Part shown: positions 44,977-64,000 of the stretch, piece by piece
Layout: each line of letters starts with the position of its first letter
Position numbering within the stretch: the stretch's first letter is position 1
DNA from: an uncultured delta proteobacterium
Lineage (GTDB): Bacteria; Desulfobacterota; Syntrophia; Syntrophales; Smithellaceae
NCBI GenBank assembly: GCA_963851005.1
Contig: CAWKNI010000002.1
Span: 6,156-70,155, forward strand
Direction of reading: 5' to 3'
Length of the DNA stretch: 64,000 bases
Translations under genes and position numbers: made by a program
The notes under the pieces: model-generated
The model's database searches: none
The model's input: only the letters and a program-made list of their open reading frames with translations
What the model was told of the DNA's origin: nothing

Positions 44977-47900
44977 CTAATTAGTTATATTCTTGCCCGT
45001 CAAGTAATCAATCATCGGTTGCGTAACCAGCGGCACAAGATCACCGATCATGTGCGGCATAAGACTATCCATTACTTTCGGCATCAGTTCCGGCATCTGC
45101 TCACGCATATAATCGGGCATGGCAATCTGCGCGGCAACTCTGTCGAGCATCGTCGGCATTACCTTCGGCATCATCATAGGCAGTAATCGGGGAAACAAAA
45201 CAGGAAACATGGGTTTCATTAAATTGAGCGCACCGGGAATCTTTCCCATGACCCGCATCATCGGACCCATACCGAAGGGCATGGCGTCAATCAATTGCGG
45301 CCACATCGTGCCCATTAAATTGGCAAAACCTTGTGGCGTCATCAAAGATATGAAGGCATCGAAAACGCCCCATTGGCTGTGCACATCGGGGTTAGGATCG
45401 GGAAAATCATATCCAAGGGCGTTTCCGGCCAGATGCGCTAAATCCACGACATCCACCGGTATATTTTTCTTTTTCGCGGTTATACGCAACTGCACCTGAC
45501 AGCAGGGACACAGTGCCAATACTTTTTGGGCACCTGCTTCCACCGCTTCATCCAGTCTTGTTTTACCGATCTCGGCAGCAACCGGCGGATCTTTAATCAA
45601 AGACAGAACACTCCCGCAGCAATGGGCGTTTTCATGGTTATGCTCCATTTCGACAAATTGAACGTTAGGGATCGCCCTGATCATATCACGCGGTGGTTCA
45701 TACACACCGGATGCCCTGCCGATATGACAGGAGTCATGCCAGGTGACCTTTACCGGCTTAATATTATTCGCTGGAAATTTGAATTCACCGGATTTTATTT
45801 TTTCGGCGATAACTTCAGAGTAATGTTTGGTCTTGATGTTGTATTCAATGCCCAACTTCTTTGCCCATTCGGGATAGACATTGCGCCACATCATGTCGCA
45901 AGCTGGACATGATGCAATGACAGTATCAGCACCAGTTCGCTTTACAACTTCTATGTTTTTGCGCATAATATCTTCAAAAAGATCCCATTTACCGGCGACC
46001 AGCATCGGCGTGCCACAGCAATTCTCCGGTTTGCCGGCGTAAACAAAATCCACACCGGCGCGGTCAAGCAATCTTACGGTTGCCATACCGATGTCGTGCT
46101 CCACATAGCTCACCGTGCATCCTGCAAAATACATTGCCGGTGCTTTGCGTCCGGGACCATGTTTCTCTTTAAGATCTTCAGGAAACCAGTCTGCCCTGTT
46201 TTTGCGGTAACCAGCCCAGATGTTGCCCTCGGAACGTAGCGCTTCAGCCATCATTTCAAATGGAGGAAAGGTCATCCGTTTTTCCTGATTGATCAGTTTG
46301 CCGCGCAGTTTCATCCAGGAAGGCTCTATGGGCAAAGCCGCGGAACAGCGTAAGTTGCAAAGCTCGCAGGTTGTACAGACCAGAAAAGTATCAATCTGCG
46401 CCTGAGTCCATTTGGCTCTTCCTTCCAGATATTCCCTCAACCAATACCATTTGCCTCGCGGGCTCTGGCTCTCCCAACCGCGGCCGTAAAATTGATCGCA
46501 CTCCTCCACACAGTAACCGCATTGAGAACAGCTATAAGCATACCAGACAACGTCAGATGGAATATCACTTACGGGATAAGTTTTTCTTTCTCCAATACGA
46601 GTAATAACATAATTGCCGAAAGGCCGGATCAGTGGCTCAACGATAGATCCTATGCTCACGGCGCTGTCCATCAGATTGTAACCCATGACCTTTCCGGGAT
46701 TGAAAATACCCTTTTCATCAATCTGTTTTTTAAAAGCTTTCAGCTTAGCCAATCGTTCTCCACCAAATACTTTGGAGGCTTTAGCCTTGAAATATAAACC
46801 GGTGGAATAGGCCCGACCGCCGTTGGCTTCCGCAATTTTCATAATGGATAATGAAAGACTGAAAACAAAATTGTAACTGAACTTGCGCTGATCGGCGGGA
46901 ATAAATCCCAGAACAACCACTTCCGGCTTTCCATCCTTGCCCTTGCGAATAACCGTGCCTTCCTTGACAATGGGTTGATTGATTTTTTTTTCGACTTCCG
47001 CCATGAAGTTACCCAACCGTGAAAGGGGAATGACAACTTCAGCGGGAACCAGACTGGGACCAAGGCGCTTGACCACCATAATTTTGAAACGGTTTTTCCA
47101 TTCATGTTCGGCGATGCGCTCACTTAATATTTCACCCTGACAGCGGCGCAATATTTCTTTCAGCTTGGCTTTACCTTGCGCCGCATCTTTTTTATGAAAA
47201 GCTATTGTGGCAACATAAGAAGCAGGCAGAAGCACTCTTTCTTCAATTGGATGACCGTTGTGTTCCATCAATGGCGAACGATTTTTCATTTCCGCCATCC
47301 GGGGATTGATGAAAACCAGAGACCACAAAGGCAGATCCGCTTTCACTATATCTTCCACAATCATTTGCAGAGCATCAGCTTCCGGGCAGCCGATAGCAAT
47401 AATTTCAAGTTCTTCTTTCGGTTGAACTTTCATGGTTAAATCAATGATAAAACCGGTTGTGCCTTCGGCATCGGCAATTAAGTCCAAATCTGTGCCGGTA
47501 AAGACGCGCACAGAACCATCGGGCAACACTACGCGGGCAGAAACGACATTTTCCCGAAACCAGCCGTATTGGTAGGAACCGAAACCAGCACCGCCCTGCG
47601 CCAGCCAGCCGCCGACAGTCGAGCCGGGATAACTGGACGGATATAGATTTACGGTAAGCCCCTCTTTAGCCAAAGCTGCGTCAACTTTTTCCCAGACAAC
47701 CCCGGCCTGACAGGTAACCGTCATGGCTTGCTTATCTATGGATAAAATTTTATTCAGACGGAAGAAATCAACTACAATCCCTTTTTTAATGGGCAAAACC
47801 CCGCCATAACCGGAAGAAGCTTTCGCCCTCGGCGTAAGAGCAATATTGTTTTGGCCGGCCCAGTTAGTGAGATTAACCAGCTCTTCTTCGTTTTGGGGCT

Positions 47901-48054
47901 GAACAATCGCGTCGGGAACTGTTTTGCCGATAAGCGGCGCAATAAGAGAAGGTATTGCAGCTATATCATGGCTGTATAACACACGCTCCACTTCATCAAA
48001 ATTCACACGATTGCCGAATTGCCCCTCCAGATATTCTTTCGTCTGCTGGTTCAT
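44977..48054 (-). CDS. Fusion of FAD-binding (GlcD-like) oxidase with a GlcF/HdrD-like Fe-S/CCG module and a Met/Pro-rich tail
   Basis: 1025-aa ORF. N-terminal FAD_binding_4 region; CSQCGYCVEEC and CTTCELCNLRC clusters; two CCG-type motifs (CCGTP..CPACD, HCCGS..CPCCQ); Met-rich C-terminal 121 aa. Confidence 0.88.
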   Translation of the reverse strand: MNQQTKEYLEGQFGNRVNFDEVERVLYSHDIAAIPSLIAPLIGKTVPDAIVQPQNEEELVNLTNWAGQNNIALTPRAKASSGYGGVLPIKKGIVVDFFRLNKILSIDKQAMTVTCQAGVVWEKVDAALAKEGLTVNLYPSSYPGSTVGGWLAQGGAGFGSYQYGWFRENVVSARVVLPDGSVRVFTGTDLDLIADAEGTTGFIIDLTMKVQPKEELEIIAIGCPEADALQMIVEDIVKADLPLWSLVFINPRMAEMKNRSPLMEHNGHPIEERVLLPASYVATIAFHKKDAAQGKAKLKEILRRCQGEILSERIAEHEWKNRFKIMVVKRLGPSLVPAEVVIPLSRLGNFMAEVEKKINQPIVKEGTVIRKGKDGKPEVVVLGFIPADQRKFSYNFVFSLSLSIMKIAEANGGRAYSTGLYFKAKASKVFGGERLAKLKAFKKQIDEKGIFNPGKVMGYNLMDSAVSIGSIVEPLIRPFGNYVITRIGERKTYPVSDIPSDVVWYAYSCSQCGYCVEECDQFYGRGWESQSPRGKWYWLREYLEGRAKWTQAQIDTFLVCTTCELCNLRCSAALPIEPSWMKLRGKLINQEKRMTFPPFEMMAEALRSEGNIWAGYRKNRADWFPEDLKEKHGPGRKAPAMYFAGCTVSYVEHDIGMATVRLLDRAGVDFVYAGKPENCCGTPMLVAGKWDLFEDIMRKNIEVVKRTGADTVIASCPACDMMWRNVYPEWAKKLGIEYNIKTKHYSEVIAEKIKSGEFKFPANNIKPVKVTWHDSCHIGRASGVYEPPRDMIRAIPNVQFVEMEHNHENAHCCGSVLSLIKDPPVAAEIGKTRLDEAVEAGAQKVLALCPCCQVQLRITAKKKNIPVDVVDLAHLAGNALGYDFPDPNPDVHSQWGVFDAFISLMTPQGFANLMGTMWPQLIDAMPFGMGPMMRVMGKIPGALNLMKPMFPVLFPRLLPMMMPKVMPTMLDRVAAQIAMPDYMREQMPELMPKVMDSLMPHMIGDLVPLVTQPMIDYLTGKNITN

Positions 48055-48152
48055 AAATAACCTCCGGTTTCCGATAAATTTGCCAAGTCGAAAACAAGTT
48101 GATTGGCACGACAGGGAGTTGATCTATCGTGCCAGTTTAAATTTAAATATGT

Positions 48153-49346
48153 TTAAAAAGTGTAGGCAACTCCCATATCAATTGAGTACTGTGACATTTC
48201 TGTTTCATATGAGCTGATATACTGTGACGGATTAGAGCCGCTAATTTTTGCTGTCGGTGAATACATGCCGCCGATGTTAAGTGTGAATTGTTTGGTAATA
48301 TTAATTCCAATACCTGCGGTAATGTGATGTTCAGAAACTGCTGGGAAAGCTATATTTTCGAATGCCCGGTTGCTATCAAGAGGCATTTTGCCGTAGTTAT
48401 AACCGGCTCGTAATACCACCATTGGATTAACTGTGTACTGAACGCCTAGTTTGTAGACGAACTGGTCGCTCCAATCCATATTCCAGGGCATGGCTCCACT
48501 GGCGTTGGCCGTGTATTTGGGCAGGTTTTGCCCATTGGTATCTGACCAGTTTATCCATTCGACATCAAAACCAATGGATAAATCTTTGATTGGTTTTATA
48601 CCTAAGCCTATTGTCGCCACTTGGGGCTGATCAAATTCTATATTATCTATACCGGCAGCTGTGTTAAAAGAAAAATCCTGAAAATAGCTTTTTGTCTCGT
48701 AGGCCAATCCAATCTGGATCATATCTATTGGTTTGACCAACACTCCGATAGTTGCTCCGTAACCGAAAGACGATGCGCCCATATGTGGCAGCTGGTCTGC
48801 AGGACTTGCGTTGGCAACATTAAATTCCATGGTCGCGTACATAATGTTGACTGCAACCCCGACGGACACTTTATCATTGATTTTGTAGGAAAGGGCCGGC
48901 GCGAAACGCATCTGTGAATACGCTGTATAGGTGGTGCTTCCGTAAAGATTTGCGGGATAATCAACACCCATACCGGCCACACCGTATGCACCTACCCCAA
49001 ACTTAAATTTATCACCAAGTGGGATGATCAAGCCAAAAGCAGGAACTGGTGATGCGCCTCGGTCAGAATCAATTTCAGCCCCATTAGCTCCCCCGGTTGC
49101 CTTATAGTCAACGGAAGGCTTGAAATATGAGGCACCAAAATCTATCCGCCCAGGCAAATCGCTCATACCGGCCGGATTGGTCAGTACTGACGCGGCATCA
49201 AGCGGGAGTCCCACACTCACCCCACCCATGGAATCCTGCACCGGACCGAAGCCGATCATCCGCATACCGTTGGTCGCGTAAACACTGCTCGCCATCAATA
49301 CTGCGCAAACAATACTCATTAAGGACAACCTAATTATTTTTTTCAT
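48153..49346 (-). CDS. FadL/OmpP1/TodX-family outer-membrane channel for hydrophobic compounds
   Basis: 397-aa ORF with a signal peptide, NPAGMS motif, alternating beta-strand pattern, and a C-terminal ...GVAYTF. Confidence 0.85.
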   Translation of the reverse strand: MKKIIRLSLMSIVCAVLMASSVYATNGMRMIGFGPVQDSMGGVSVGLPLDAASVLTNPAGMSDLPGRIDFGASYFKPSVDYKATGGANGAEIDSDRGASPVPAFGLIIPLGDKFKFGVGAYGVAGMGVDYPANLYGSTTYTAYSQMRFAPALSYKINDKVSVGVAVNIMYATMEFNVANASPADQLPHMGASSFGYGATIGVLVKPIDMIQIGLAYETKSYFQDFSFNTAAGIDNIEFDQPQVATIGLGIKPIKDLSIGFDVEWINWSDTNGQNLPKYTANASGAMPWNMDWSDQFVYKLGVQYTVNPMVVLRAGYNYGKMPLDSNRAFENIAFPAVSEHHITAGIGINITKQFTLNIGGMYSPTAKISGSNPSQYISSYETEMSQYSIDMGVAYTF

Positions 49347-49484
49347 ACTTCCTCCTTTTTCTCCTCAAATTTTTTAATATTTTCGATCAATTTTATTACG
49401 ATGAATTCGTCACAAAATCCTCCAGCGCAATCTTTTAAAAAAATATTTTGGGCCGACTCACCATAATTACCTAATGTGCGTAAT

Positions 49485-49865
49485 TTATTTTCGTTTAGCG
49501 GCAGTTTTGCGTTTCACTGATCTGTTACCAGATACGTCATTAAACTCTTTAACCATACGGGCAACTTCTTTTCCTCTTGCCCTGTGTTGTTCAACTAATA
49601 CTTCCCGCATTAAAGTGCAGGCCTGAATGATTTTAGGGTTGGAAATCGAATAAAACAATTGCTGTCCTTCACGCCGGGATACAATAACCCCTTTTGATTT
49701 CAACACATTCATATGCTGGGACATGCTTACTTTGTTTAAACCAGTTTCGTGCATGATTTCCTGATTGGATATTTCTTTGTCTTTAAGCAAATTAATAATT
49801 TCCAAACGCTTATCATTGGCAAAAATCTTACAGATATCAGCCTGAAGCTTAAAAATATTTTTCAT
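49485..49865 (-). CDS. ArsR/SmtB-family transcriptional regulator
   Basis: 126-aa ORF with FANDKRLEIINLLKDKEISNQEIMHETGLNKVSMSQHMNVLKSKGVIVSRREGQQLFYSI. Confidence 0.85.
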   Translation of the reverse strand: MKNIFKLQADICKIFANDKRLEIINLLKDKEISNQEIMHETGLNKVSMSQHMNVLKSKGVIVSRREGQQLFYSISNPKIIQACTLMREVLVEQHRARGKEVARMVKEFNDVSGNRSVKRKTAAKRK

Positions 49866-49949
49866 TTACCCTCCATCAACGATCAAAAGATTAAACTTCA
49901 TAACAGTAATTAAATTCCATGTTTGAGTTAACCAATAGTTTATTAGTTA

Positions 49950-49992
49950 ATATAGTTGCAAACTATATAACTCTTGTTTTCATACATGTCAA
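49950..49992 (-). promoter_or_regulatory. ArsR promoter with overlapping palindromic operator
   Basis: Minus-strand read: TTGACA (49987-49992), 17-nt spacer, TATATA (49964-49969). The palindrome ATATAGTT-GCA-AACTATAT (49950-49968) overlaps the -10. Confidence 0.55.
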
Positions 49993-50199
49993 TATAAATA
50001 TTAGAATTAGCAAAAGTTTAGCAGAATTGAGAAATAAAGAGTTATTATTTAACACATAATACAAGTATTGGGGGAGCAGGGCACACTCTTTCTAACGGTT
50101 TTTTAAGCTAAAATAGGCTTATAAGTAATAAGTCGCCAATCTTATAAAAACAATTGATCATATTAGTTTCATTAGTTGGTTAACTTTGGTCGACTCCCG

Positions 50200-51525
50200 T
50201 TATTTCCGAGGGGCAACTCTGCGATAGTTCATATTCGACATGAATGCAAAACACATCGCCGTGAAACTGCGGGTTTTTCTAAAGGTTGATGAGGCTTTGT
50301 GAAACAACACAGGCAAGGCGTATATTTGTCGGTTAATCTCTATCATCTTACGGTACAACTGATCAGGCTCCATACTGCCAGGCTTATGAATCACTTCGGT
50401 CATATCATAGTGGTCCCAATCTTTATGAAAATCAGTATAGAGTAATCGCTGCTCTTTACAATATCGGTCAAAAACCCGCGTGCCCGGTAGCGGAGTCAGG
50501 AATGTAGTCTGCATCACATCTATGTCATGATGAACCATGTAGTCGGCACGTTGTTGCAGTTTATCTGGGGTATCTCCATCCATCCCGAAGATAAAGGCTC
50601 CTAAAACTGCAATACCTGCACGGTTGATGTGACGGAATGCATGGGAATAATAATCTACTCCACGATTAATATTGAGCTGTTTATGGACTTCTTCTAGGGC
50701 ATCGACTTGCTCTGCTTCAAGCCCCAGGAAGACCATCTTGCAGCCAGCCCGGCTTGCCCAGGAAACCACTTCATCATCATCCCCAAAGTTCAGCGAAGCC
50801 TGGCAGAACCACCACTTGTTCAGCTTACGCTCCACCATCCCTTTGAAAATTTCCAATGCCTGCTCACGTGAATCCTTTCCGTACCCAATGATGTTATCAT
50901 CCACAAAGAATATCATTTTCTCTTTTATAGTTTCCAACTCGGCCAGTACTTCACCAGGAGGACGACGGCGGTATCGTCTCCCATTGAAAGCGCTAACCGA
51001 GCAGAATTCACAGTCCATCGGACAACCTCGCGAGGTTTGCACAGAGGCGAACATATAGCCAGGATTAAACAGGTCACGTCGCGGGCTCGGCATACCTGAC
51101 AAATCAGACCAGTCGCCCTTGTATATCTGCTGGAGACACCCGGCATCAACATCGACTATTACACGCGGCCATACAGTTTCAGCCTCGCCGACAACCACGG
51201 CATCTGCAAAACGAAGGGCTTCTTCAGGGCACATGGAGGCATGGATGCCCCCTATAATGACAGGTACACCTCGCTGTCGATAAATCGAAGCGATTTCGTA
51301 TGCCCGATTCGTAGAGGCAGTAAATGCCGTAATACCAACCAAATCCGCTTTTTGATAGGAGAAAGGCTTCCAGTTCTCATCAAGCAGCGTTACATCCCAC
51401 GAGGGAGGGGTGGCGGCTGCGACAATTCCTAAGCCAATAGGAGGAAACCGTGAAGACCTGTTAACAGTGAGCCCTACACGGGCAGGATTCACAGGGTTGA
51501 TCAGGACGAGATTTCTATTTTTCAT
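50200..51525 (-). CDS. B12-binding-domain radical SAM protein
   Basis: 441-aa ORF. N-terminal cobalamin-binding-like Rossmann region (VGITAFT..., VIIGGIHAS), then SRGCPMDCEFCSV. Confidence 0.88.
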   Translation of the reverse strand: MKNRNLVLINPVNPARVGLTVNRSSRFPPIGLGIVAAATPPSWDVTLLDENWKPFSYQKADLVGITAFTASTNRAYEIASIYRQRGVPVIIGGIHASMCPEEALRFADAVVVGEAETVWPRVIVDVDAGCLQQIYKGDWSDLSGMPSPRRDLFNPGYMFASVQTSRGCPMDCEFCSVSAFNGRRYRRRPPGEVLAELETIKEKMIFFVDDNIIGYGKDSREQALEIFKGMVERKLNKWWFCQASLNFGDDDEVVSWASRAGCKMVFLGLEAEQVDALEEVHKQLNINRGVDYYSHAFRHINRAGIAVLGAFIFGMDGDTPDKLQQRADYMVHHDIDVMQTTFLTPLPGTRVFDRYCKEQRLLYTDFHKDWDHYDMTEVIHKPGSMEPDQLYRKMIEINRQIYALPVLFHKASSTFRKTRSFTAMCFAFMSNMNYRRVAPRK

Positions 51526-54783: not shown

Positions 54784-56697
54784 GTGGCGAGCAAATACAA
54801 GGGCTACATGGGAAAGATACTGGATGTGGATCTTACAATGGGGAATATCGGTGAGTATAACTTGTCGGATCGCGACAGGGAGCGGTTCATAGGAGGCAGA
54901 TACATCTCCACAAAGATACTCTGGGATCAAATGAAGCCCGGCATCGATCCGTTATCGCTCGATAATATTCTCATCGTAATGACATCTCCCTTGACCGGCA
55001 CAGGCGCCCCATCAACGAGCCGTTATGACATCTCCGCCAAGAGTCCACAGACAGGTACCATCGGACATTCCAACAGCGGTGGAAATTTCGGTATACATCT
55101 GAAGAGGGCAGGCTGGGATGGTGTAATAATCAGGGGAAGAGCAAATGCCCCAGTTTATCTGGACATTAACGAAGATAAAGTAACGATCAAGGATGCCTCA
55201 CATTTATGGGGAAAGGATATCGAAGAGACAAAGGAACTGATGGGCGACAAGAAGGCAGGCAAGATGGTCATCGGTCCGGCCGGAGAGAACCTTGTAAGAT
55301 ATGCAATCGTAGTTTCCCAGGACAGGGCACACGGGCGTTCAGGCATGGGTGCGGTGCTGGGATCGAAGAACCTCAAAGGCATTGTTGCTCAAGGGAAGAA
55401 AAAGATTGAACTCCATGATCCGGAAGGTTTCCGGGAAACCATCAAGAAGTGGATAAAAATGCTCCAGGCGCATCCGGCAACGGGCGAGTTCGCCCCCAAG
55501 TATGGCACATCGGGGTTTTTGAAATCAATATCCGATCATAACGCTCTTCCCACAAAGAATTTCTCTTCAGGTCACTATGAGGATGCCCAAATGCTTACGG
55601 GCCAGACCCTTGCCGAAACAAGGCTTATAAAGAACGACGGTTGCCAGTCCTGCCCGATACGCTGCGCCAGAATCGTGGAGCTTGACGGCCGTCAGATCAA
55701 GGGACCTGAGTATGAGGTCTTGTGTCTGCTGGGGTCAAATCTGCTCATCAATGATATGGATGCGATCATACGCTGGAACTATGAACTGGACATTCTGGGA
55801 CTTGATACAATTTCTACCGGTACGGTGCTAGGCTTTGCGGCCGAGCTCAATGAAAAGGGCATGTGGAAGAATGGCATTGAATTCGGAAAAAAGGATAACA
55901 TCTCGGCTGTTATACGGAATATTGCTTTGCGCCAGGGCATCGGCGCAGATCTGGCCGAAGGCGTGCGGTACCTTTCGAAGAAATACGGCGGGGAAGATTT
56001 TGCTCCTCATTCCAAGGGCATGGAATTCGCCGCCTACGAACCTAGGGGAGCTGTCGGCCACGGCTTAGGCTATGCTACGGCAAACCGTGGCGCCTGCCAT
56101 CTTGATGGCGGTTATATGATCTATTTTGAGGCGACCGGTCCGGCAATCCTCGATCCCTACGACTACCGGTCCAAGCCGAGTTATACCATATTAGATCAGA
56201 ATCTCCTGTCCTCAATCAGCGCCGGAGGAAGTTGTCTGTTTACATCTTGGACAGTCCTGCCTTCCATCACCTTCAAGGTACCGAATTCCAAGATCGTGAG
56301 CTGGCTGGTCACGCAGATATTGACATATTCATGGCCCACAATAGAACTTACCTTGAAAATGCCATCCTTTATGATGAGATATCACCTCCCTATGCTTCCT
56401 CATTCCAAAGCCATAAAACAGGCTACAGGCATGGATATGGATTTCGGAAGATTCATCAGGATGGGAGAGAGAGGCTTTACTCTGGAACGGCTTTTTAATA
56501 CACGAGAGGGATTTTCCGCCAAGGAAGACACACTGCCCAAACGGTTCACCGATGTAGAACAGATCCCCGGGAAGACCAAGACAAAGGTTCCCCTCGGTAA
56601 AATGTTGCCCGCGTATTACAAGCTACGGGGGTGGGATGCAAACGGTATCCCGACGGCTAAGACACTGAGGAAGCTGGACTTGGAGGATTTGCTATGA
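54784..56697 (+). CDS. Tungsten/molybdopterin aldehyde:ferredoxin oxidoreductase (AOR family)
   Basis: 637-aa ORF with a GTG start after AGGAGG. YMGKILDVDLTMG..., GGRYISTKILWD, CQSCPIRC, and GLDTISTG are typical of AOR N- and C-terminal domains. Confidence 0.92.
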   Translation: MASKYKGYMGKILDVDLTMGNIGEYNLSDRDRERFIGGRYISTKILWDQMKPGIDPLSLDNILIVMTSPLTGTGAPSTSRYDISAKSPQTGTIGHSNSGGNFGIHLKRAGWDGVIIRGRANAPVYLDINEDKVTIKDASHLWGKDIEETKELMGDKKAGKMVIGPAGENLVRYAIVVSQDRAHGRSGMGAVLGSKNLKGIVAQGKKKIELHDPEGFRETIKKWIKMLQAHPATGEFAPKYGTSGFLKSISDHNALPTKNFSSGHYEDAQMLTGQTLAETRLIKNDGCQSCPIRCARIVELDGRQIKGPEYEVLCLLGSNLLINDMDAIIRWNYELDILGLDTISTGTVLGFAAELNEKGMWKNGIEFGKKDNISAVIRNIALRQGIGADLAEGVRYLSKKYGGEDFAPHSKGMEFAAYEPRGAVGHGLGYATANRGACHLDGGYMIYFEATGPAILDPYDYRSKPSYTILDQNLLSSISAGGSCLFTSWTVLPSITFKVPNSKIVSWLVTQILTYSWPTIELTLKMPSFMMRYHLPMLPHSKAIKQATGMDMDFGRFIRMGERGFTLERLFNTREGFSAKEDTLPKRFTDVEQIPGKTKTKVPLGKMLPAYYKLRGWDANGIPTAKTLRKLDLEDLL

Positions 56698-56853
56698 TCT
56701 TAAGTATGAAGAGGTGAAGGGAGAATACAGCGCAAAAACATTGCCGGTGGGAGTGCTGGCCGCGTCTGCGGATTTTTGTTCATGATAATTAGACCGTTAT
56801 TGATATAGTCCAAGTATGAACAAGCAGTGTCTTACTGGAAAAAGAGGAAGGTA

Positions 56854-58488
56854 ATGGAATTTGATTTTGCAGTGATAGGAAGCGGTTTCGGGGGCAGTGT
56901 ATCGGCGTTGCGGCTTGCGGAAAAGGGATACAGCGTTGTCGTGCTGGAAAAAGGCAAATGGGTGACCCCCCTGGATATGGAAGACGCATCCAAAAGCTTG
57001 AACAAGCTTATCTGGAATCCTGCGCTGGGCATGAGGGGCTTTTTCACCTATGATTTCTTTCGGCATGTTTCCATTGTTGGCGGTGTTGGCGTCGGCGGCG
57101 GAAGTCTCGTTTATGCAGCGACCACATTGAGGCCGAAGCAAGCCTTTTATCAGGATTCGGCCTGGAGCAATCTCGGAATCGACTGGGAAAAGGAGCTGAA
57201 ACCTCATTATGATACCGCTTCTAAAATGCTGGGTATAGTTAGAAATCCGGTAATGGATGTCATGGACGACTACCTGAAAGACGTGGCGGAGAAAATGGGA
57301 GCGGGCGATACATTTGGTCCTACCGATACCGGCATCTACTTCGGGATACCGGAAGTGATTGTTGATGATCCCTTCTTCAATGGGAAGGGGCCTTCACGGT
57401 CAGGTTGTTATCTCTGTGGCGAATGTCTCACGGGATGTAAGCACGGTTCGAAAAATAGCCTGGACAAAAATTATCTCTATCTTGCCCAGAAATACGGGGC
57501 GACAATCCTGCCGTACCGGGAAGTCACAAACATTATTCCTCAACAAAACGGCACATATGTCCTGAAGGTAAAGGACAACTCCGGGCTGTGCAAAAAATCT
57601 TCCGATATTAAGGCAAAAAAAGTAGTCGTGGCGGCAGGTGTTCTAGGAACACTGAAGTTGCTGTTTAGATGCAAACAAGTCACAAAAACTCTGCCAGATA
57701 TATCCCGGCAGCTGGGTGTGGTTGTCAGGACAAATAGCGAATCCATTGTAGGTGTTTTGCCCAAACAGGAGGATTTGGATCTTTCCCACGGCACAACGAT
57801 ATCATCGGACTTTTATCCTGATAAATATACACATATCACCCAGAACCGGTTTCCCGAGGGCTACAGTTTCATGAAATATTTCAGCGTTCCCCTTGTGGAT
57901 GACGACCATCCCGTAAGGAGAACTCTGAGAACTCTGGGCAAGATGATTTTGAATCCTCTGGATATCTTTCGGGCAATTTTTGCTAAAAACTGGCACAAGC
58001 GAATCATCGTCCTGACCGTTATGCAGAACCATGACAACCAGCTTTCCTTCAAGTATGGCCCCAGCGCCGTGTTTTCTTTTTTGATGCGCCGTTTAAAGTC
58101 AAAGACCGTTCTGGGGAAAGAAGCGCCGGTAAATATTCCCGTGGCCAACAAGGCGTGCGCCATTCTGGCAGATGTAGCCCAGGGAATGCCCATCAATGTC
58201 AGCAACGAAAACCTGATGAATATGTCGACAACAGCCCATATTCTCGGCGGTTGCCACATGGGATCTTCTCCCGAGAACGGTGTTATCGACACATCACACC
58301 GGGTTTTCGGATACGATGGTCTTTATGTGTGTGACGGTGCGGCAGTTTCGGCCAATGTAGGCGTTAATCCCGCTCTTACGATCACGGCGCTTGCGGAACG
58401 GGCGATGAGTCTTATTCCGGATAAGAAATCAGCCCCGGATGGTTTTTTACGAAACGCCCCTAAATTAAGGATTTTACCGAACAATTAA
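56854..58488 (+). CDS. GMC-family FAD oxidoreductase (cholesterol-oxidase/alcohol-oxidase-like)
   Basis: Start moved to ATG 56854 (RBS AGAGGAAGG). FDFAVIGSGFGGSVSALRLAEKGYSVVVLEKG, and a C-terminal HILGGCHMG...VCDGAAVSANVGVNPALTI. Confidence 0.85.
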   Translation: MEFDFAVIGSGFGGSVSALRLAEKGYSVVVLEKGKWVTPLDMEDASKSLNKLIWNPALGMRGFFTYDFFRHVSIVGGVGVGGGSLVYAATTLRPKQAFYQDSAWSNLGIDWEKELKPHYDTASKMLGIVRNPVMDVMDDYLKDVAEKMGAGDTFGPTDTGIYFGIPEVIVDDPFFNGKGPSRSGCYLCGECLTGCKHGSKNSLDKNYLYLAQKYGATILPYREVTNIIPQQNGTYVLKVKDNSGLCKKSSDIKAKKVVVAAGVLGTLKLLFRCKQVTKTLPDISRQLGVVVRTNSESIVGVLPKQEDLDLSHGTTISSDFYPDKYTHITQNRFPEGYSFMKYFSVPLVDDDHPVRRTLRTLGKMILNPLDIFRAIFAKNWHKRIIVLTVMQNHDNQLSFKYGPSAVFSFLMRRLKSKTVLGKEAPVNIPVANKACAILADVAQGMPINVSNENLMNMSTTAHILGGCHMGSSPENGVIDTSHRVFGYDGLYVCDGAAVSANVGVNPALTITALAERAMSLIPDKKSAPDGFLRNAPKLRILPNN

Positions 58489-58638: not shown

Positions 58639-59187
58639 ATGCTATTAAAGGGATGTTTACATACGCACACAACTTGCTCGGATGGTAAACTGTCACCACA
58701 GGAAGTAGCCAATGAATATGAATCAAGAGGATATGATTTTATAGCTTTTACCGATCATGATTACTTGCTTAAGCCCAATTACCGGGAGATATACGGGCAG
58801 GTAAAGACAAACATGATCATATTTTATGGCATCGAGTTAAGCGTCTTTGTCAATGGAAATATACATGTGTCAAAAATTGAAGGTGAAAATGAGGTGCTAC
58901 ACATATTCAACCACATCGGCGAATACGACTTTACCCCGGAGCAGTTGCTGGTTCGGCTGGCGGAACTGGAAAAGAAGTATCCTCTAGATGCGGTGGAAAT
59001 AACGACAAAAGGGTATCGCGATATAGTTTTTGAATCACTCGATATAGCGTATCCCAAACTGGCATCTGATGACTCGCACACACTGGGCGGTATCGGCAGG
59101 GCATGGATAGAATTGGACGCGCAGCGGAGGAAAGATTCCATCATAAGAGCGATAAAAAAAGGAAAATGTTGGAATTGCTACATATAA
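58639..59187 (+). CDS. PHP-domain metal-dependent phosphoesterase-like protein
   Basis: 182-aa ORF. CLHTHTTCSDGKLSPQEV...GYDFIAFTDHD fits the PHP motif pattern. Confidence 0.75.
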   Translation: MLLKGCLHTHTTCSDGKLSPQEVANEYESRGYDFIAFTDHDYLLKPNYREIYGQVKTNMIIFYGIELSVFVNGNIHVSKIEGENEVLHIFNHIGEYDFTPEQLLVRLAELEKKYPLDAVEITTKGYRDIVFESLDIAYPKLASDDSHTLGGIGRAWIELDAQRRKDSIIRAIKKGKCWNCYI

Positions 59188-59242
59188 CAAAAGAGGATTT
59201 ATATAATCCTTTATAAAGTCACATCAAATAGGAGGAATGGTA

Positions 59243-60397
59243 ATGGCGAAAAAAATTGCCGTCTGCGCAGTGGCGCAGATTAAAAATGATCCGGAATACA
59301 AAGATCTTCGTTTCCAGAACATGCTGCTCGAGTGTTTCGAGTCAATCATGGACCAGACCAAGGTTACCTTCGACATGGATAAAGGCATCAGAACCATCAT
59401 CACGTGCTCGGATGACGTGTTCGATGCGCGAACCATATCCAACAACGGCATAACGGATGTCGTGGGCGCGCACTTTCGGGGCGAGGAAAAGATGGCACAG
59501 GAGAGCATCAATGGCTTGGGTTACGCTATGGCATGCATACTATCAGGCCATGATGACTTGATCCTTTTCATGGGTCACTGCAAGGAGTCCCAGGGCGAAA
59601 GCCGCAGGATGGTTTCCAACTTGGCCTATGATCCGTTCTACTGCAGGCCTCTCGGTATGGACTATCACAACGCAGACGCCTTACAGGCTCGAGCTTACAT
59701 GGAAAAATCGAAAGTAACTGACGAACATCTTGCCAAAGTAGTGGTACGCTCGCGGAAGAATGCGAAAAATAACCCCTATGCGCGAAAGAATAAAATTGTA
59801 ACCGAAAAAGAAGTGATGAATTCGCCGATGTATTCGGACCCGTTGCGTGAACTGCACATTTATCCGGTCACCGACTGGGCGTATGGCATGCTCCTATGCA
59901 GCGAAGAACGGGCGAAGGAGTTTACAAAAAAACCCGTATGGATTACCGGGTACGGGAGCTGTATGGATTCATATTTCCTCGGTGATAAGGACATTACCTC
60001 AAATTTTTCACTTAAAAATGCGGCACAGCGGGCATACGCCAAGGCCGGTATAAAAGATCCCAGAAAAGAGATTCAGCTTTTCGAGCTTAGCGACCACGCC
60101 GCATACCAGCTTCCGATGTGGGCCGAAGGTGTCGGCATTGCCGATGAAGGTAAAGGTGGCAAATGGATCGACGACGGCGGCATGGATAAATTTAATCTCA
60201 ACCTGTCAGGGGGACAGCTCAATGGCAATCCTCTTCTTCTTGGGGGTGCGGCCAGAGCCATTGAATGTTACTATCACCTATCCAATCAGGCAGATGACCG
60301 CCAGGTAAAGGGTGCAAAGCGGGCAGTCGCCCAGGCGGCAACCGGCGGGGCCGGGCAGCATCAGGCCGTAATCGTAATGGAAGCGCAGGGAGGTTGA
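59243..60397 (+). CDS. Thiolase-like protein A (SCP-x/DUF35-partner type, non-canonical active site)
   Basis: Start taken at ATG 59243 (6 nt after GGAGGA). Thiolase-fold length and layout. The C-terminal block NLSGGQLNGNPLLLGGAA sits where thiolases have N.SGG....GHP.GA.G. Confidence 0.8.
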   Translation: MAKKIAVCAVAQIKNDPEYKDLRFQNMLLECFESIMDQTKVTFDMDKGIRTIITCSDDVFDARTISNNGITDVVGAHFRGEEKMAQESINGLGYAMACILSGHDDLILFMGHCKESQGESRRMVSNLAYDPFYCRPLGMDYHNADALQARAYMEKSKVTDEHLAKVVVRSRKNAKNNPYARKNKIVTEKEVMNSPMYSDPLRELHIYPVTDWAYGMLLCSEERAKEFTKKPVWITGYGSCMDSYFLGDKDITSNFSLKNAAQRAYAKAGIKDPRKEIQLFELSDHAAYQLPMWAEGVGIADEGKGGKWIDDGGMDKFNLNLSGGQLNGNPLLLGGAARAIECYYHLSNQADDRQVKGAKRAVAQAATGGAGQHQAVIVMEAQGG

Positions 60398-60400
60398 ACA

Positions 60401-61600
60401 ATGGCACATAAAAAGAAAAATAGAAATGTTGGAATAATAGGTGTTGGACAGACAAAACATTCCAGCCATCGGGAGGATGTCAATCAGCCTGAGTTGATCT
60501 ATGAAGCCGTCAGCCTTGCTCTTAAAGATGCAAATCTGACCATGAAGGACATCGATTGTGTCGTTCACGGCAATATGGAGCTCTTTGAGATGGTTCACTC
60601 GCCGGATCTCTGGCATGTGTTGGGAACCGGCGCCTATGGAAAAGATTGCATTAGGATCACGACCGGTGGAACTGTCGGGGCTACCATTTCATGCGCTTCA
60701 GACAATCTCGTGGCGTCGGGGATGTATGATATCGTAATGGCCATCGGTTTTGAGAAACTGCAGGAAGGGCACACTACCGGCGGCATCACCAACATGGCAG
60801 ACCCTCTCTGGTTCAGGAAAATACAGGCTGGCGCGCTTACCGGGTCCTCGGCTTATGATGTCGAACGGGAATTCGGCGTTGAGCGTGCGGACAAGGCATC
60901 GCTGATATATCGCATCATCATGGATAAGCACGCGGCGCTTAATCCCAACGCACACCGCGCCTTTGGCCTTGAATTCAGCCAGATCGACGACCTCATCAGG
61001 ACTTCACCGAAGCTCGTCGGCAATCTCAAGCTCATCGAAATGTGTTCGCAATCAGACGGAGCATGCTGTGTCATCTTCGCCTGTGAGAAGAAAGCAAAAG
61101 ACCTAACCAAGACGCCGGTTTGGATACGAGATCATATCACCGTTCACAAGGAAGAAACATTCAACATATTCGGATATAACAGAGCATTTCCTGTTATGAA
61201 GTCGCATAAATTTGCGGCGGAACAACTCTTCAAGAGGAACGGCATTACAGACCCCTTAAATTATTTTGATGTTTTTGAAATGTATGATCCGGCCTCATGG
61301 TGGGCCATTGACTGGCTCAGAGACTTCTTCGACCTGAAAGGTGATGAGCATCTCAAGCTCATTGAAAATAAGGAGATCATGATTGGTGGCAAAATGCCCA
61401 TTAACCCGTCAGGCGGCGTGATTGGCTCGAACCCAATCGGCGCGACCGCGCTGATCAGAGTGGCCGAAGCGGCTATGCAGGTGCGCGGCAATGCCGGTCC
61501 GCACCAGATACCGACTCCGGTCAATCACGCTCTGGCGTCAGGGTTCGGCGGCACCATGTGGACAGTGCTGACAATGCTCGAGAAGGAACTTAACTGGTAG
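60401..61600 (+). CDS. Thiolase-like protein B (SCP-x type, non-canonical active site)
   Basis: 399-aa ORF. RNVGIIGVGQTKHS, candidate nucleophile region TISCASDNLVASGMYD, and C-terminal INPSGGVIGSNPIGATA (SNP where GHP is expected). Confidence 0.85.
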   Translation: MAHKKKNRNVGIIGVGQTKHSSHREDVNQPELIYEAVSLALKDANLTMKDIDCVVHGNMELFEMVHSPDLWHVLGTGAYGKDCIRITTGGTVGATISCASDNLVASGMYDIVMAIGFEKLQEGHTTGGITNMADPLWFRKIQAGALTGSSAYDVEREFGVERADKASLIYRIIMDKHAALNPNAHRAFGLEFSQIDDLIRTSPKLVGNLKLIEMCSQSDGACCVIFACEKKAKDLTKTPVWIRDHITVHKEETFNIFGYNRAFPVMKSHKFAAEQLFKRNGITDPLNYFDVFEMYDPASWWAIDWLRDFFDLKGDEHLKLIENKEIMIGGKMPINPSGGVIGSNPIGATALIRVAEAAMQVRGNAGPHQIPTPVNHALASGFGGTMWTVLTMLEKELNW

Positions 61601-61610
61601 GAGGATAATC

Positions 61611-62801
61611 ATGGCAGAATACTGGGGAATAAAAGTAGAAGATATATTCAATACGATGAAAGAGCGTTTCCGTCCCGAAGGCGCTAAGGATGTCGATGCG
61701 GTTTTCGGTTATGATATCGAAAACGAGGGGAAATGGAAACTGACGGTAAAGAACAACGAAATGGTGATCGAGAAGACCGACAACCTTTCCGGATGCATTG
61801 CGACTATGAAAGCCGACGGCGAGACGTTTGTTGGAGTAAATACCGGCAAAGTTGACGCCACGAACGCCTTCATGAGCGGTAAGGTCAAGGTTGAGGGCGA
61901 CATCGGTGCATTTGGGAAGACCGGCAAACTCTTCCGCAAATATGTGATTGCCAAGAAGGAGATGACGACGAAGGATTATCTCGCAGACATGTTCGCGACG
62001 ATTGTGCCGCGGTTCAAGGCTAAAGAGTCCGAAGGGATTGAAGCCTCTTTTGCTTTTGATCTCGGCGGAGCGGACGGCGGCAAATGGACCGTTTTCATAA
62101 AGGATAAAGTATGCACGGTCACGACGACCATCGAGGGTAAGCCAACGGTTACGCTGGAATTCAACGAAGCTAGAGATTATGTCGATTTTATACTTGGGAA
62201 GATTGACGCTCAGAGCATCCTGGCTGCGGGAAAGGCTGCTGCCAAGGGCGATATCAATATGATGGCGACAAAGTGGCCTGTGTTGTTTGAAAAATACAAA
62301 GATCCCATGGCCGGTGCTGTGCAGGAACAGGAACTGTTGGTGCTAAAAAAGACCATATCTGTCGACCAGAAGTTTTCCACCGGCCCCGTCATGGGCAAGT
62401 TCCTCAAGGGATTGAAAGATAAAAAAATATACGCGAATAAATGCCCCAAGTGCGGTCGCTTACAGCTGCCGCCGCGGGAAGTGTGTGCCGAATGCCGGGT
62501 GCGCGCCACTGATTTCCTTGAGGTTGGCCCAAAGGGTGAAGTCCGCTATATGGACATAGTCTACTACGCCATGCCTGATCCGCTTACCGGCGTGGCCAGA
62601 GAAACCCCGTACGGGTCGATCTTTGTCCTCCTGGACGGATGTACAGGCAATGAAACCCTGACACATTTTATCAGAAAAGACCAGATAGAGAAAATCCAGC
62701 TGGGATGGAACGAGAAAAAGGGTACACGTGTCCGCCCCGTCTGGGAGGAAAATAGAATCGCTGATATCTGGGATATTAAATATTTTGAAATAGATGAGTA
62801 A
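61611..62801 (+). CDS. SCP2 - SCP2 - DUF35 (zinc-ribbon/OB-fold) fusion protein
   Basis: 396-aa ORF. Two sterol-carrier-protein-2-like units (..TNAFMSGKVKVEGDIGAFGKTGKLF; ..ILAAGKAAAKGDINMMATKWPVLF), then the zinc ribbon CPKCGRLQLPPREVCAEC and an OB-fold. Confidence 0.8.
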   Translation: MAEYWGIKVEDIFNTMKERFRPEGAKDVDAVFGYDIENEGKWKLTVKNNEMVIEKTDNLSGCIATMKADGETFVGVNTGKVDATNAFMSGKVKVEGDIGAFGKTGKLFRKYVIAKKEMTTKDYLADMFATIVPRFKAKESEGIEASFAFDLGGADGGKWTVFIKDKVCTVTTTIEGKPTVTLEFNEARDYVDFILGKIDAQSILAAGKAAAKGDINMMATKWPVLFEKYKDPMAGAVQEQELLVLKKTISVDQKFSTGPVMGKFLKGLKDKKIYANKCPKCGRLQLPPREVCAECRVRATDFLEVGPKGEVRYMDIVYYAMPDPLTGVARETPYGSIFVLLDGCTGNETLTHFIRKDQIEKIQLGWNEKKGTRVRPVWEENRIADIWDIKYFEIDE

Positions 62802-62812
62802 GGAGTAAGTAT

Positions 62813-64000
62813 ATGACAAAAAAGCAAATGAAAGGTTATGAAGACAGCTTTGTGGTTGAAGGTAAAATGGCGCTCCCTTATACTTACTTCGCCGGCCGGG
62901 TTGGCAGCAAGTTCATCACAACCATCCGGGACCAGAAGAAAATCATGGGAGTGAAATGTCCTGCCTGCAATATCGTCTATCTGCCGCCAAGGCAGGTATG
63001 CGAAAAGGACTTTACCGACATCCGCGACAAATGGGTCGAGGTAAGTAATACCGGCAGAGTTACCAACTTCACAGTGGTGCGCTATGACGACAAGCACCTG
63101 CCAAGGAAAGCGCCCTTTGTGCTGGCCCTTATAAAATTGGACGGCGCGGATACGCCTTTTATGCATATTCTTGAGGAATGCAAAATAGAGGACGTAAAGA
63201 TAGGTATGAAAGTAGAGGCGGTTTTCGCCAAAGAAACGACGAACACCATTCTGGATATTGATCATTTTAAACCGGCGCCTGAAAGAGTTTCTGTTCACGA
63301 GATTAACGCGGCCAGGAAGCAATGGGTTCCCGAAGATGAACCCGATACTAAAGAAAAACGAAAAGGAGGCAAACCCAATATGTCAAAACCCGTTATTATC
63401 ACCGCGGCGCTTACCGGAGCTGCCACAATGAAGAATCAAAACCCGTCAGTGCCTTATACACCGGCGGAGTTCGCGGAAGAAGCATACAAGTGCTGGAAAG
63501 CTGGAGCGGCCATGGTGCATGTGCATGCCCGTGAAGAGGGAGGTATGGCCACCCATGATCACGCGAGAATCAAGGCAACCTACGATGCTATTAAGGACAA
63601 ATGTCCGGACATCATTGTCTGCCTGACCTCCGCAGTCGGCATGAACAAAACAACAGAGCAGCGGTTATCCCAGATCGTGGCGATCAAGCCCGAAGTGGCG
63701 TCGCTGAACACCAACACGATGAACTTCGGCATCGTTGACCGCAAAACAGGGAAGATATTCATCGATTATGTGTTTGAGAATACTTTCACCATGCTGCAGG
63801 ATTTCGGCAAGGCTATGGAAGAAAACAGTGTGAAGCCGGAAATCGAGTGCTACGATATGGGCGGACTCGACAACGCCATTCTGATAGGCAAGCAGGGTAT
63901 CTTCACCGACCCGATGAACTTCAATTTCGTCTGGGGAGTCGCGGGTGGACAGCAGTTCCGGGCTGAATCATTCATTGCCATGATGAACGCGCTTCCCGCG
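62813..64000 (+). CDS. DUF35 (zinc-ribbon/OB-fold) protein fused in frame to a BKACE-family (3-keto-5-aminohexanoate cleavage-like, DUF849) enzyme; 3'-partial
   Basis: Not in the ORF track. ATG 62813 follows AAGGAG. I read all 396 codons to the window end without a stop. The DUF35 part has CPACNIVYLPPRQVC...GRVTNFTVV. A ~37-aa linker follows, then MSKPVIITAALTGA...PYTPAEFAEEAYKCWKAGAAMVHVHARE (BKACE signature), starting at an internal ATG 63380 that has its own AAAGGAGG. Confidence 0.75.
   Translation, partial: MTKKQMKGYEDSFVVEGKMALPYTYFAGRVGSKFITTIRDQKKIMGVKCPACNIVYLPPRQVCEKDFTDIRDKWVEVSNTGRVTNFTVVRYDDKHLPRKAPFVLALIKLDGADTPFMHILEECKIEDVKIGMKVEAVFAKETTNTILDIDHFKPAPERVSVHEINAARKQWVPEDEPDTKEKRKGGKPNMSKPVIITAALTGAATMKNQNPSVPYTPAEFAEEAYKCWKAGAAMVHVHAREEGGMATHDHARIKATYDAIKDKCPDIIVCLTSAVGMNKTTEQRLSQIVAIKPEVASLNTNTMNFGIVDRKTGKIFIDYVFENTFTMLQDFGKAMEENSVKPEIECYDMGGLDNAILIGKQGIFTDPMNFNFVWGVAGGQQFRAESFIAMMNALPA

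Follow-up and report, generated by a model that had tools for sequence, protein, structure and literature searches.

Why should a beta-keto acid cleavage enzyme (BKACE, the DUF849 family) be joined to a DUF35 domain, and what might such a domain hold it to? The question is raised by an open reading frame (ORF) at the end of a 64,000-nucleotide stretch of DNA from an uncultured delta proteobacterium of the family Smithellaceae (GenBank assembly GCA_963851005.1, contig CAWKNI010000002.1, positions 6,156 to 70,155 of the forward strand; hereafter the window, numbered from its first letter), in which a DUF35 module, a charged linker and a BKACE module follow one another in a single frame. A preliminary description of the window had read this frame as a fusion, had suggested that BKACE might also be made alone from an internal start, and knew of no described DUF35-BKACE tether. 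We find that the fusion is a genuine, evolutionarily maintained gene. As the best explanation of the whole, to which we assign a probability of roughly 0.6, we propose that its DUF35 module docks BKACE on a pair of thiolase-fold proteins encoded upstream, ThlA and ThlB, and that free BKACE is produced as well.

A DUF35-linker-BKACE frame runs off the end of the window

On the forward strand, positions 62813-64000 hold 396 sense codons and no stops, the frame still being open where the window ends; at the window's 44% GC, an open frame of this length has a chance probability of about 1e-10. The ATG at 62813 is preceded at a distance of 7 nt by the Shine-Dalgarno (SD) sequence AAGGAG (62800-62805, +), so that translation and sequence both agree with the frame as first described. 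An identical gene in an independent assembly gives the protein a full length of 475 amino acids (aa), and the end is predicted to lie about 240 nt past the window. The frame is missing from the ORF track because the ORF listing omits frames that run off the end of the sequence. The 252-aa antisense ORF found there instead (62564-63322, −) had been considered spurious, correctly in our view, as it has no Pfam match and overlaps two conserved sense genes.

Pfam supports the described succession of DUF35, charged linker and BKACE from codon 190, with boundaries that we set at residues 1-154, 155-189 and 190 onwards. The DUF35 module (62813-63274, +), which ends in HFKP, contains the OB fold OB_ChsH2_C (PF01796; residues 74-138, 54.6 bits against a cut-off of 27.1) and has PDB sequence matches 3irb and 6esq_E. 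In an AlphaFold2 model, built as a single chain on a 96%-identical family member, this module is folded (predicted local distance difference test, pLDDT, 80-87), the linker is of low confidence (57-72) and the barrel is confident. Foldseek superposes the modelled DUF35 on that of ChsH2 (6ok1_B) with TM scores of 0.66-0.69, and of 0.63-0.69 across 6ok1_B, 3irb (SSO2064) and 6esq_E. Towards the N terminus, residues 17-34 are conserved and residues 11-32 nearly invariant (GK-ALPY-YF-GR-GS-F), yet the latter have pLDDT below 50, a combination typical, as far as the model can indicate, of a partner-binding segment that becomes ordered only on its partner. At residues 63-66 (62999-63010), the window protein and its close relatives have C-E-K-D and distant members C-E-R-C, apparently a switch from Cys to Asp at the fourth zinc ligand; a C3H1 zinc-ribbon variant has been reported for Shy (PMC12329534).

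The BKACE module (63380-64000, +, with its C-terminal third beyond the window) matches PF05853 over residues 193-393; the part inside the window scores 213 bits (6.6e-63) and the complete module 308 bits. It aligns with Kce (2y7d) at E = 2.7e-48, including the HxH and GxEDN motifs, and its modelled TIM barrel superposes on Kce (2y7f) with a TM score of 0.92 and a root-mean-square deviation of 2.4. The zinc motif H236-V-H238 (63518-63526, +) and G-L-E428-D429-N both match motifs of Kce, the zinc ligands of which are presumably H46, H48 and E230, and are invariant in 25-26 fusion proteins. Ala stands opposite Glu14 of Kce, and two short insertions follow NTNTMNFG. Judged by these residues and by the model, both modules look functional. 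BKACEs, Kce included, convert a beta-keto acid and acetyl-CoA into acetoacetate and a shortened acyl-CoA, and the same activity, substrate aside, is predicted for the fusion module.

The fusion is maintained across two phyla

Could a lost stop or an indel in the window have joined two separate genes? Such an artefact might be suspected from a nearly identical relative (L001; ENA ERZ25039480 contig_89751), in which DUF35 (156 aa) and BKACE (286 aa) are called separately, and from stand-alone 286-aa BKACE calls, 82-96% identical, on short contigs. The L001 sequence, however, departs from the window by one extra G (GCGC[G]CTG), which gives rise to a TGA, and it has further broken genes (ThlB, CoA-transferase A and a DUF35 gene) and many single-base indels; on this pattern its split is an error of an indel-prone assembly. 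A second, independent Logan assembly (L002) is identical to the window across the junction and encodes the 475-aa fusion. Searching 5.8 billion proteins, we recovered about 90 clusters of approximately 475 aa that combine PF01796 with PF05853, down to 63-68% identity and drawn from JGI, ENA, NCBI and Logan; where such proteins are publicly named, the name is '3-keto-5-aminohexanoate cleavage protein'. A scan of species-representative genomes yielded 80 loci, and among all loci collected 75 are fused; these derive from a wide range of projects and sequencing platforms, and their 69 distinct linkers are all open. The closest are Smithella/Syntrophaceae metagenome-assembled genomes (MAGs) from peat (95%), and many others are Spirochaetota/Leptospirales MAGs. 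The preliminary description had left room for the two domains being separate genes at every homologous locus, which is not what we find: five distant loci are split and 75 are fused. Because the fused frame recurs in L002, in the roughly 90 clusters and in the 75 loci, the artefact is effectively refuted. One fusion protein (P0069; L064 10001-12038) begins with about 40 additional residues, many of them Lys and Ala, for a total of 518-524 aa.

The five split loci (L072, L074, L075, L077 and L079) also point to how the fusion arose. Their hosts are Deltaproteobacteria, Syntrophales, Desulfomonilia and one MAG labelled Bacteriovoracaceae, and each has DUF35 and BKACE as adjacent genes in the same order. 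In these loci, DUF35 ends in HFEP(V/M/A)-stop, precisely where the linker of the fused proteins begins (HFKP-A...), and a spacer of 42-177 nt with several stops, then GGAGG, then the BKACE ATG follow. The linker of the window protein (residues 155-189; 63275-63379, +) is 35 aa long and has the sequence APERVSVHEINAARKQWVPEDEPDTKEKRKGGKPN, with 8 K/R, 7 D/E and 4 P; its limits are set by its variability, its low pLDDT and the DUF35 stop at the same boundary in the split loci. Because that stop falls exactly at the linker start, the simplest reading of the alignment is that the linker is a translated former intergenic spacer: an ancestral adjacent DUF35-BKACE pair would have lost the DUF35 stop codon, and translation of the spacer would now supply some 35 aa of flexible, charged linker. 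Across the fused forms, linkers span 31-41 aa (median 36), are rich in K, E, A and R, and are highly variable, and none of the 69 distinct versions has acquired a stop or a frameshift. That so fast-evolving a linker stays open in every version argues for selection on the covalent link. In all five split loci, DUF35 and BKACE share a reading frame across the spacer, which may be chance, given about three independent lineages.

A conserved internal start may supply free BKACE

The BKACE module of the window begins with an in-frame ATG (63380-63382, +; Met190) that has its own SD, GGAGG, 10 nt upstream (63365-63369, +). In the alignment this codon falls on the start of the separate BKACE genes at the split loci, which makes it the ancestral BKACE start. 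It is kept as ATG in 69 of 72 distinct junctions, and an exact GGAGG lies within 20 nt upstream in 54 of the 72; among 8196 other in-frame ATGs in the same operons the corresponding figure is 2.9%, and at called gene starts 42%.

The nucleotides are held more tightly than the amino acids require. Two linker classes carry GGAGG in two codon registers with different residues: class 1 ends in ...K/R-G-G-K/R-P-D-M, encoded AAA GGA GGN ... ATG, and class 2 in ...E-R-R-K-A-M, encoded GAA AGG AGG AAA GCN ATG. The first Gly codon of class 1 is GGA in 40 and GGG in 13 of 53 junctions and never GGC or GGT, as against 24%, 13% and 62.5% elsewhere in the same genes; GGA or GGG is thus found at 53/53 junctions versus 37% elsewhere. 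The class 2 Arg codons at the junction are AGG in 30 cases, AGA in 4 and CGN in none of 34 (elsewhere in the same genes 26%, 11% and 63%), so that AGG or AGA accounts for 34/34 versus 37%. An in-frame start with an SD at the proper spacing is therefore conserved beyond amino-acid constraint, which makes the preliminary proposal of both a fusion and a free BKACE, from the SD and the ATG at 63380, plausible at the nucleotide level. Because the ancestral SD and ATG have been retained, free BKACE is probably made from Met190 in most members besides the full-length protein; the predicted isoform would be about 31 kDa and have the N-terminal peptide SKPVIITAALTGAATMK or its Met form.

Several observations weigh against use of this start, and together they give some room to a less likely account in which GGAGG and ATG are a slowly decaying relic of the ancestral start or serve to pause translation, and the full-length protein alone is of consequence. 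The SD is weakened to AAGGGGG in one subclade (L022-L035, L076 and L081), and at three junctions the genes are still fused yet the ATG is gone (CTG in L044 and L080, and L051), so the internal start is not indispensable. The sequences are moreover related, and our codon and conservation counts treat them as independent, which overstates their number and inflates significance. A relic does not readily explain, on the other hand, why GGAGG(N6-10)ATG persists in different registers while the remaining linker has diverged beyond recognition between the classes, why synonymous codons are so strongly skewed towards the SD, or why in L051 the ATG and the SD disappear together.

The fusion belongs to an operon of thiolase-fold and DUF35 proteins

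More than 15 genes make up the conserved operon to which the fusion belongs. From its start, the order is a small PHP-domain protein, ThlA, ThlB, SCP2-DUF35, the DUF35-BKACE fusion, an acyl-CoA ligase, CoA-transferase subunits A and B (of the 3-oxoacid type), DUF35, Thl3, Thl4, DUF35 and an unknown protein of 287 aa. A pair of acyl-CoA dehydrogenase (ACAD) genes comes next in many loci, followed in L008 by a HadA/HadB-like MaoC pair and a second ligase; by Pfam, DUF35 is absent from the operon's MaoC proteins, which are small (137-160 aa). Four thiolase-fold genes thus stand beside four DUF35 modules, and the ratio is likewise 4:4 in the split loci L077 and L079.

The preliminary description had placed two thiolase-like proteins just upstream of the fusion. 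Two thiolase-fold genes are indeed present at 59237-61600, identified by Pfam, PDB matches and residue alignment; they are not thiolases, and an SCP2-DUF35 gene that had gone unmentioned intervenes. The nucleophilic Cys is replaced by Gly in all four thiolase-fold paralogues of the operon (window 59237-61600, +; L004 16222-18536), which form two paralogous pairs, ThlA/Thl3 and ThlB/Thl4. ThlA (59237-60397, +) has SDHA where SCP2-thiolases have the HDCF motif and GNP for GHP, and ThlB (60401-61600, +) has YDPA and SNP; Thl3 and Thl4 read YDAF and YQPY at the HDCF position. The His of GHP is found only in Thl3, the other three paralogues having Asn in place of this catalytic residue. Gly at the nucleophile position together with Y-D-x-x characterises two aldolases of steroid side chains, Ltp2 (YDHF) and Sal (YDCY) (PMC12329534); for their second catalytic residue, Tyr344 of Ltp2 and Cys304 of Sal, the four paralogues offer no clear counterpart. 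With the nucleophilic Cys absent and the catalytic His mostly absent, the four proteins look like aldolases of the Ltp2/Sal type or inactive partners rather than thiolases. By its residues ThlB is a candidate aldolase-type subunit, and ThlA is probably a partner or structural subunit.

The SCP2-DUF35 gene (61611-62801, +) always lies directly upstream of the fusion. It encodes 396 aa with two SCP2 stretches and zf-ChsH2 by Pfam, and with PDB matches to 3irb and to SCP2 proteins; in some Spirochaetota it is longer, at 513-618 aa. It is probably the other docking subunit of the same complex. Three Spirochaetota MAGs (L044, L045 and L080) have, besides the full operon, a duplicated minimal module of ThlA, ThlB, SCP2-DUF35, the fusion, two ACADs and MaoC, without Thl3 or Thl4. 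Because the duplicate keeps only that pair, the fusion travels with ThlA/ThlB and not with Thl3/Thl4. In L080 (776-14950), the minimal module adjoins a 3beta-HSD-family/OleD-like reductase, a PRK07121 FAD protein and a ligase.

The PHP-domain gene that opens the operon core (58639-59187, +) is assigned by Pfam and keeps its position in 62 loci. Operon proteins of Smithellaceae (Desulfobacterota; L003-L021) are 80-90% identical to those of Spirochaetota (L022, L025, L027, L028, L031 and L033), which suggests that a cluster exceeding 15 kb was recently transferred horizontally between the two phyla, whose members have anoxic habitats in common. Upstream of the operon, 54784-58488 (+) encodes an aldehyde:ferredoxin oxidoreductase (AFOR) and a GMC oxidoreductase in an arrangement seen only in a Smithella subgroup; by its distribution this stretch is accessory and variable. 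The GMC oxidoreductase is a relative of the cholesterol oxidase ChoxAB, for which it scores 511 bits (cut-off 850). Between AFOR, GMC and PHP, L001 additionally encodes an FMN reductase and an unknown protein of 219 aa, and it has an rve transposase upstream. Farther away, three genes stand out within 44977-51525 on the reverse strand of the window. One encodes a 1025-aa protein in which FAD-binding_4/FAD-oxidase_C is fused to two CCG and two 4Fe-4S domains; the product of 48153-49346 belongs to the FadL/TodX family of outer-membrane channels, which serve hydrophobic compounds, and that of 50200-51525 is a B12-binding radical SAM protein. One tRNA gene (2481-2553, −) is the sole Rfam match in the window at gathering threshold.

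Docking on ThlA/ThlB is the favoured role of the DUF35 module

We propose that the DUF35 module most likely docks BKACE onto the ThlA/ThlB pair, encoded two genes upstream, with SCP2-DUF35 docking alongside. The tether would place BKACE, which needs acetyl-CoA and a labile beta-keto acid, next to an aldolase-type enzyme that releases acetyl- or propionyl-CoA; BKACE would then yield an acyl-CoA and acetoacetate, and the acetoacetate would go to the CoA-transferase encoded downstream. The Kce crystal contains four chains, and the enzyme is described as a tetramer; free BKACE subunits would let such an oligomer form with only some subunits anchored.

The DUF35 module might instead work in cis, as an acyl-CoA- or CoA-binding accessory or as an aid to the solubility or oligomerisation of BKACE, with no docking at all. 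We consider this improbable, even though BKACE itself uses acetyl-CoA and the first DUF35 structure paper (PMC2954200) proposed a role in acyl-CoA binding. In every DUF35 complex that we encountered, the domain is bound to a thiolase-fold partner, solved examples including 6esq, 6ok1, 7pxp, 5m3k and Shy-Sal, and the ancestral, split DUF35 is a separate protein in an operon with equal numbers of DUF35 modules and thiolase-fold genes. Mirror-tree comparison speaks on both sides. The BKACE module tracks the CoA-transferase best, its distances co-varying more with that enzyme than with ThlA/ThlB, as a DUF35 acting in cis would allow. The DUF35 module, by contrast, co-varies with SCP2-DUF35 (partial r 0.70) and ThlA (0.67) ahead of Thl3, Thl4 and the free DUF35s (0.42-0.51), and hardly with its own BKACE domain (0.17), which points weakly to ThlA and SCP2-DUF35 as its partners.

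Docking on ThlA/ThlB also has points against it. The mirror-tree differences are modest, taken from 24 loci whose genes all have a common history within the operon. Even the aldolase Tyr is absent from ThlA. The zf-ChsH2 match of the fusion (PF12172; residues 40-66) scores 18.7 bits, below its cut-off of 23.2, and although C49, C52 and C63 of the zinc ribbon are invariant, the fourth position in the window protein is Asp66. The linker, at about 35 aa, is long and flexible, which argues for co-localisation rather than a sealed channel and makes strict channelling unlikely; the authors of the Shy-Sal structure voice the same doubt about that complex (PMC12329534).

The operon layout suggests a bulky lipid substrate

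Which substrate would such an assembly serve? Kce itself, and with it lysine fermentation, can be set aside: the module scores 273 bits on NF052387 against an equivalog cut-off of 382, has Ala for Glu14, and has no kam, kdd or kal genes nearby. By these measures it is a BKACE other than Kce. A channelling complex of the archaeal thiolase/HMGCS type is at odds with the lack of a nucleophilic Cys in all four paralogues and of any HMGCS domain in the operon. PhlACB-type and OleA-type enzymes likewise use a catalytic Cys, absent here, making PhlACB-like C-acyltransfer or OleA-like condensation unlikely. Since several MAGs come from peat, we considered a phloroglucinol/triacetate pathway; as a 3,5-dioxohexanoate enzyme the module scores only 181 bits, where the cut-off is 430, and no reductase or cyclohydrolase genes were seen. 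For the C6 propionate-dismutation pathway of Smithella we know of no identified enzymes. A part in that pathway is very improbable: we found no literature in support, the operon is equally common in Spirochaetota, and its ACAD and MaoC genes are typical of beta-oxidation.

The substrate is, by analogy, probably a bulky or branched lipid acyl-CoA, degraded by an igr-like 'aldolytic beta-oxidation'. This is suggested by an igr/ChsE-ChsH-Ltp2-like layout, the SCP2 domains, the cholesterol-oxidase-like GMC enzyme and the upstream AFOR. The GMC and SCP2 proteins, the 3beta-HSD-family protein and the igr-like layout are suggestive of steroids, and a firm steroid assignment is not reached; the 3beta-HSD-family protein is nearest by NCBIfam to OleD-type beta-keto-acid reductases. 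Against a steroid pathway, NCBIfam gives no steroid-specific assignment among the operon proteins, the ACAD and hydratase names being generic. A more far-reaching version, which we hold to be speculative and on balance doubtful, is an ATP-saving aldolytic beta-oxidation by which energy-limited anaerobes, Smithella and uncultured Spirochaetota among them, would break down bulky lipids resembling steroids, hopanoids or isoprenoids. The tethered BKACE would use acetyl-CoA released by the aldolase to turn the labile beta-keto acid into the next acyl-CoA and acetoacetate, sparing an ATP-dependent re-ligation, with one gene supplying anchored and free subunits.

Discussion

The nearest described relatives of this arrangement are ChsH2 and Shy, in which DUF35 ties the aldolases Ltp2 and Sal to the hydratase that acts one step earlier (PMC12329534). 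As in ChsH2 (MaoC-DUF35)-Ltp2 and Shy (DUF35-MaoC)-Sal, a catalytic domain is here joined to DUF35 by a flexible linker, one of the two proposed thiolase-fold partners, ThlB, has Gly for the nucleophilic Cys together with Y-D-x-x (YDPA; ThlA has SDHA), and the operon includes an ACAD pair, a MaoC hydratase pair and acyl-CoA ligases; the modelled DUF35 superposes on that of ChsH2. The cargo, however, is a BKACE TIM barrel and not a MaoC hydratase, the hydratases of this operon having no DUF35. The partner would be a heterologous pair, ThlA/ThlB, unlike the homodimers of Ltp2 and Sal. A second DUF35 protein carries SCP2 domains, the hosts are strict anaerobes, and the internal start is conserved, none having been described for ChsH2 or Shy.

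Other DUF35 systems share parts of this design. In the archaeal thiolase/HMGCS/DUF35 complex, a DUF35 scaffold on a thiolase-fold enzyme also holds a second pathway enzyme, and its DUF35 (6esq_E) matches ours in sequence and fold; there, DUF35 is free and is combined with a canonical thiolase and HMGCS, whereas here DUF35 is fused, the catalytic Cys is missing and there is no HMGCS. PhlACB (5m3k) and BbsAB (7pxp), both PDB matches of ThlA and ThlB, are multi-subunit thiolase-fold assemblies that need DUF35, and PhlACB also pairs two different thiolase-superfamily subunits. In neither is DUF35 fused or a BKACE present, and PhlC and BbsB presumably use a catalytic Cys that ThlA and ThlB lack. 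On the enzyme side, the module shares with Kce (2y7d) its fold and its zinc and catalytic motifs. The bifunctional Kal-Kce protein (NF052389) is likewise a BKACE fused to a pathway neighbour, its fusion partner being an enzyme, unlike the docking domain found here.

Our literature search found no paper linking BKACE or DUF849 with DUF35, nor one linking Smithella with a BKACE-DUF35 enzyme, in keeping with the view that no such tether had been described. The principle of an enzyme-DUF35 fusion is known from ChsH2 and Shy, and the fusion of a BKACE to a pathway neighbour from NF052389. New are BKACE as DUF35 cargo, the origin of the linker from a spacer, the conserved internal start, and an operon common to Smithellaceae and Spirochaetota, whose versions of it are 80-85% identical in protein sequence. 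For annotation, the name '3-keto-5-aminohexanoate cleavage protein' is misleading, and the adjoining 'thiolases' ('acetyl-CoA acetyltransferase') are wrongly named.

A general adaptor role is emerging for DUF35 domains, that of attaching pathway enzymes to proteins of the thiolase fold, and BKACE would add a class of cargo. The split and fused loci form a natural record of the birth of a tether, by loss of a stop codon and translation of a spacer. A single ORF that gives both tethered and free enzyme, as the internal start suggests, would be an inexpensive way to set the stoichiometry of a multi-enzyme assembly. Finally, the fusion flags a large, conserved catabolic operon in Smithellaceae and Spirochaetota of peat, digesters and sediments, groups with a poorly known carbon metabolism.

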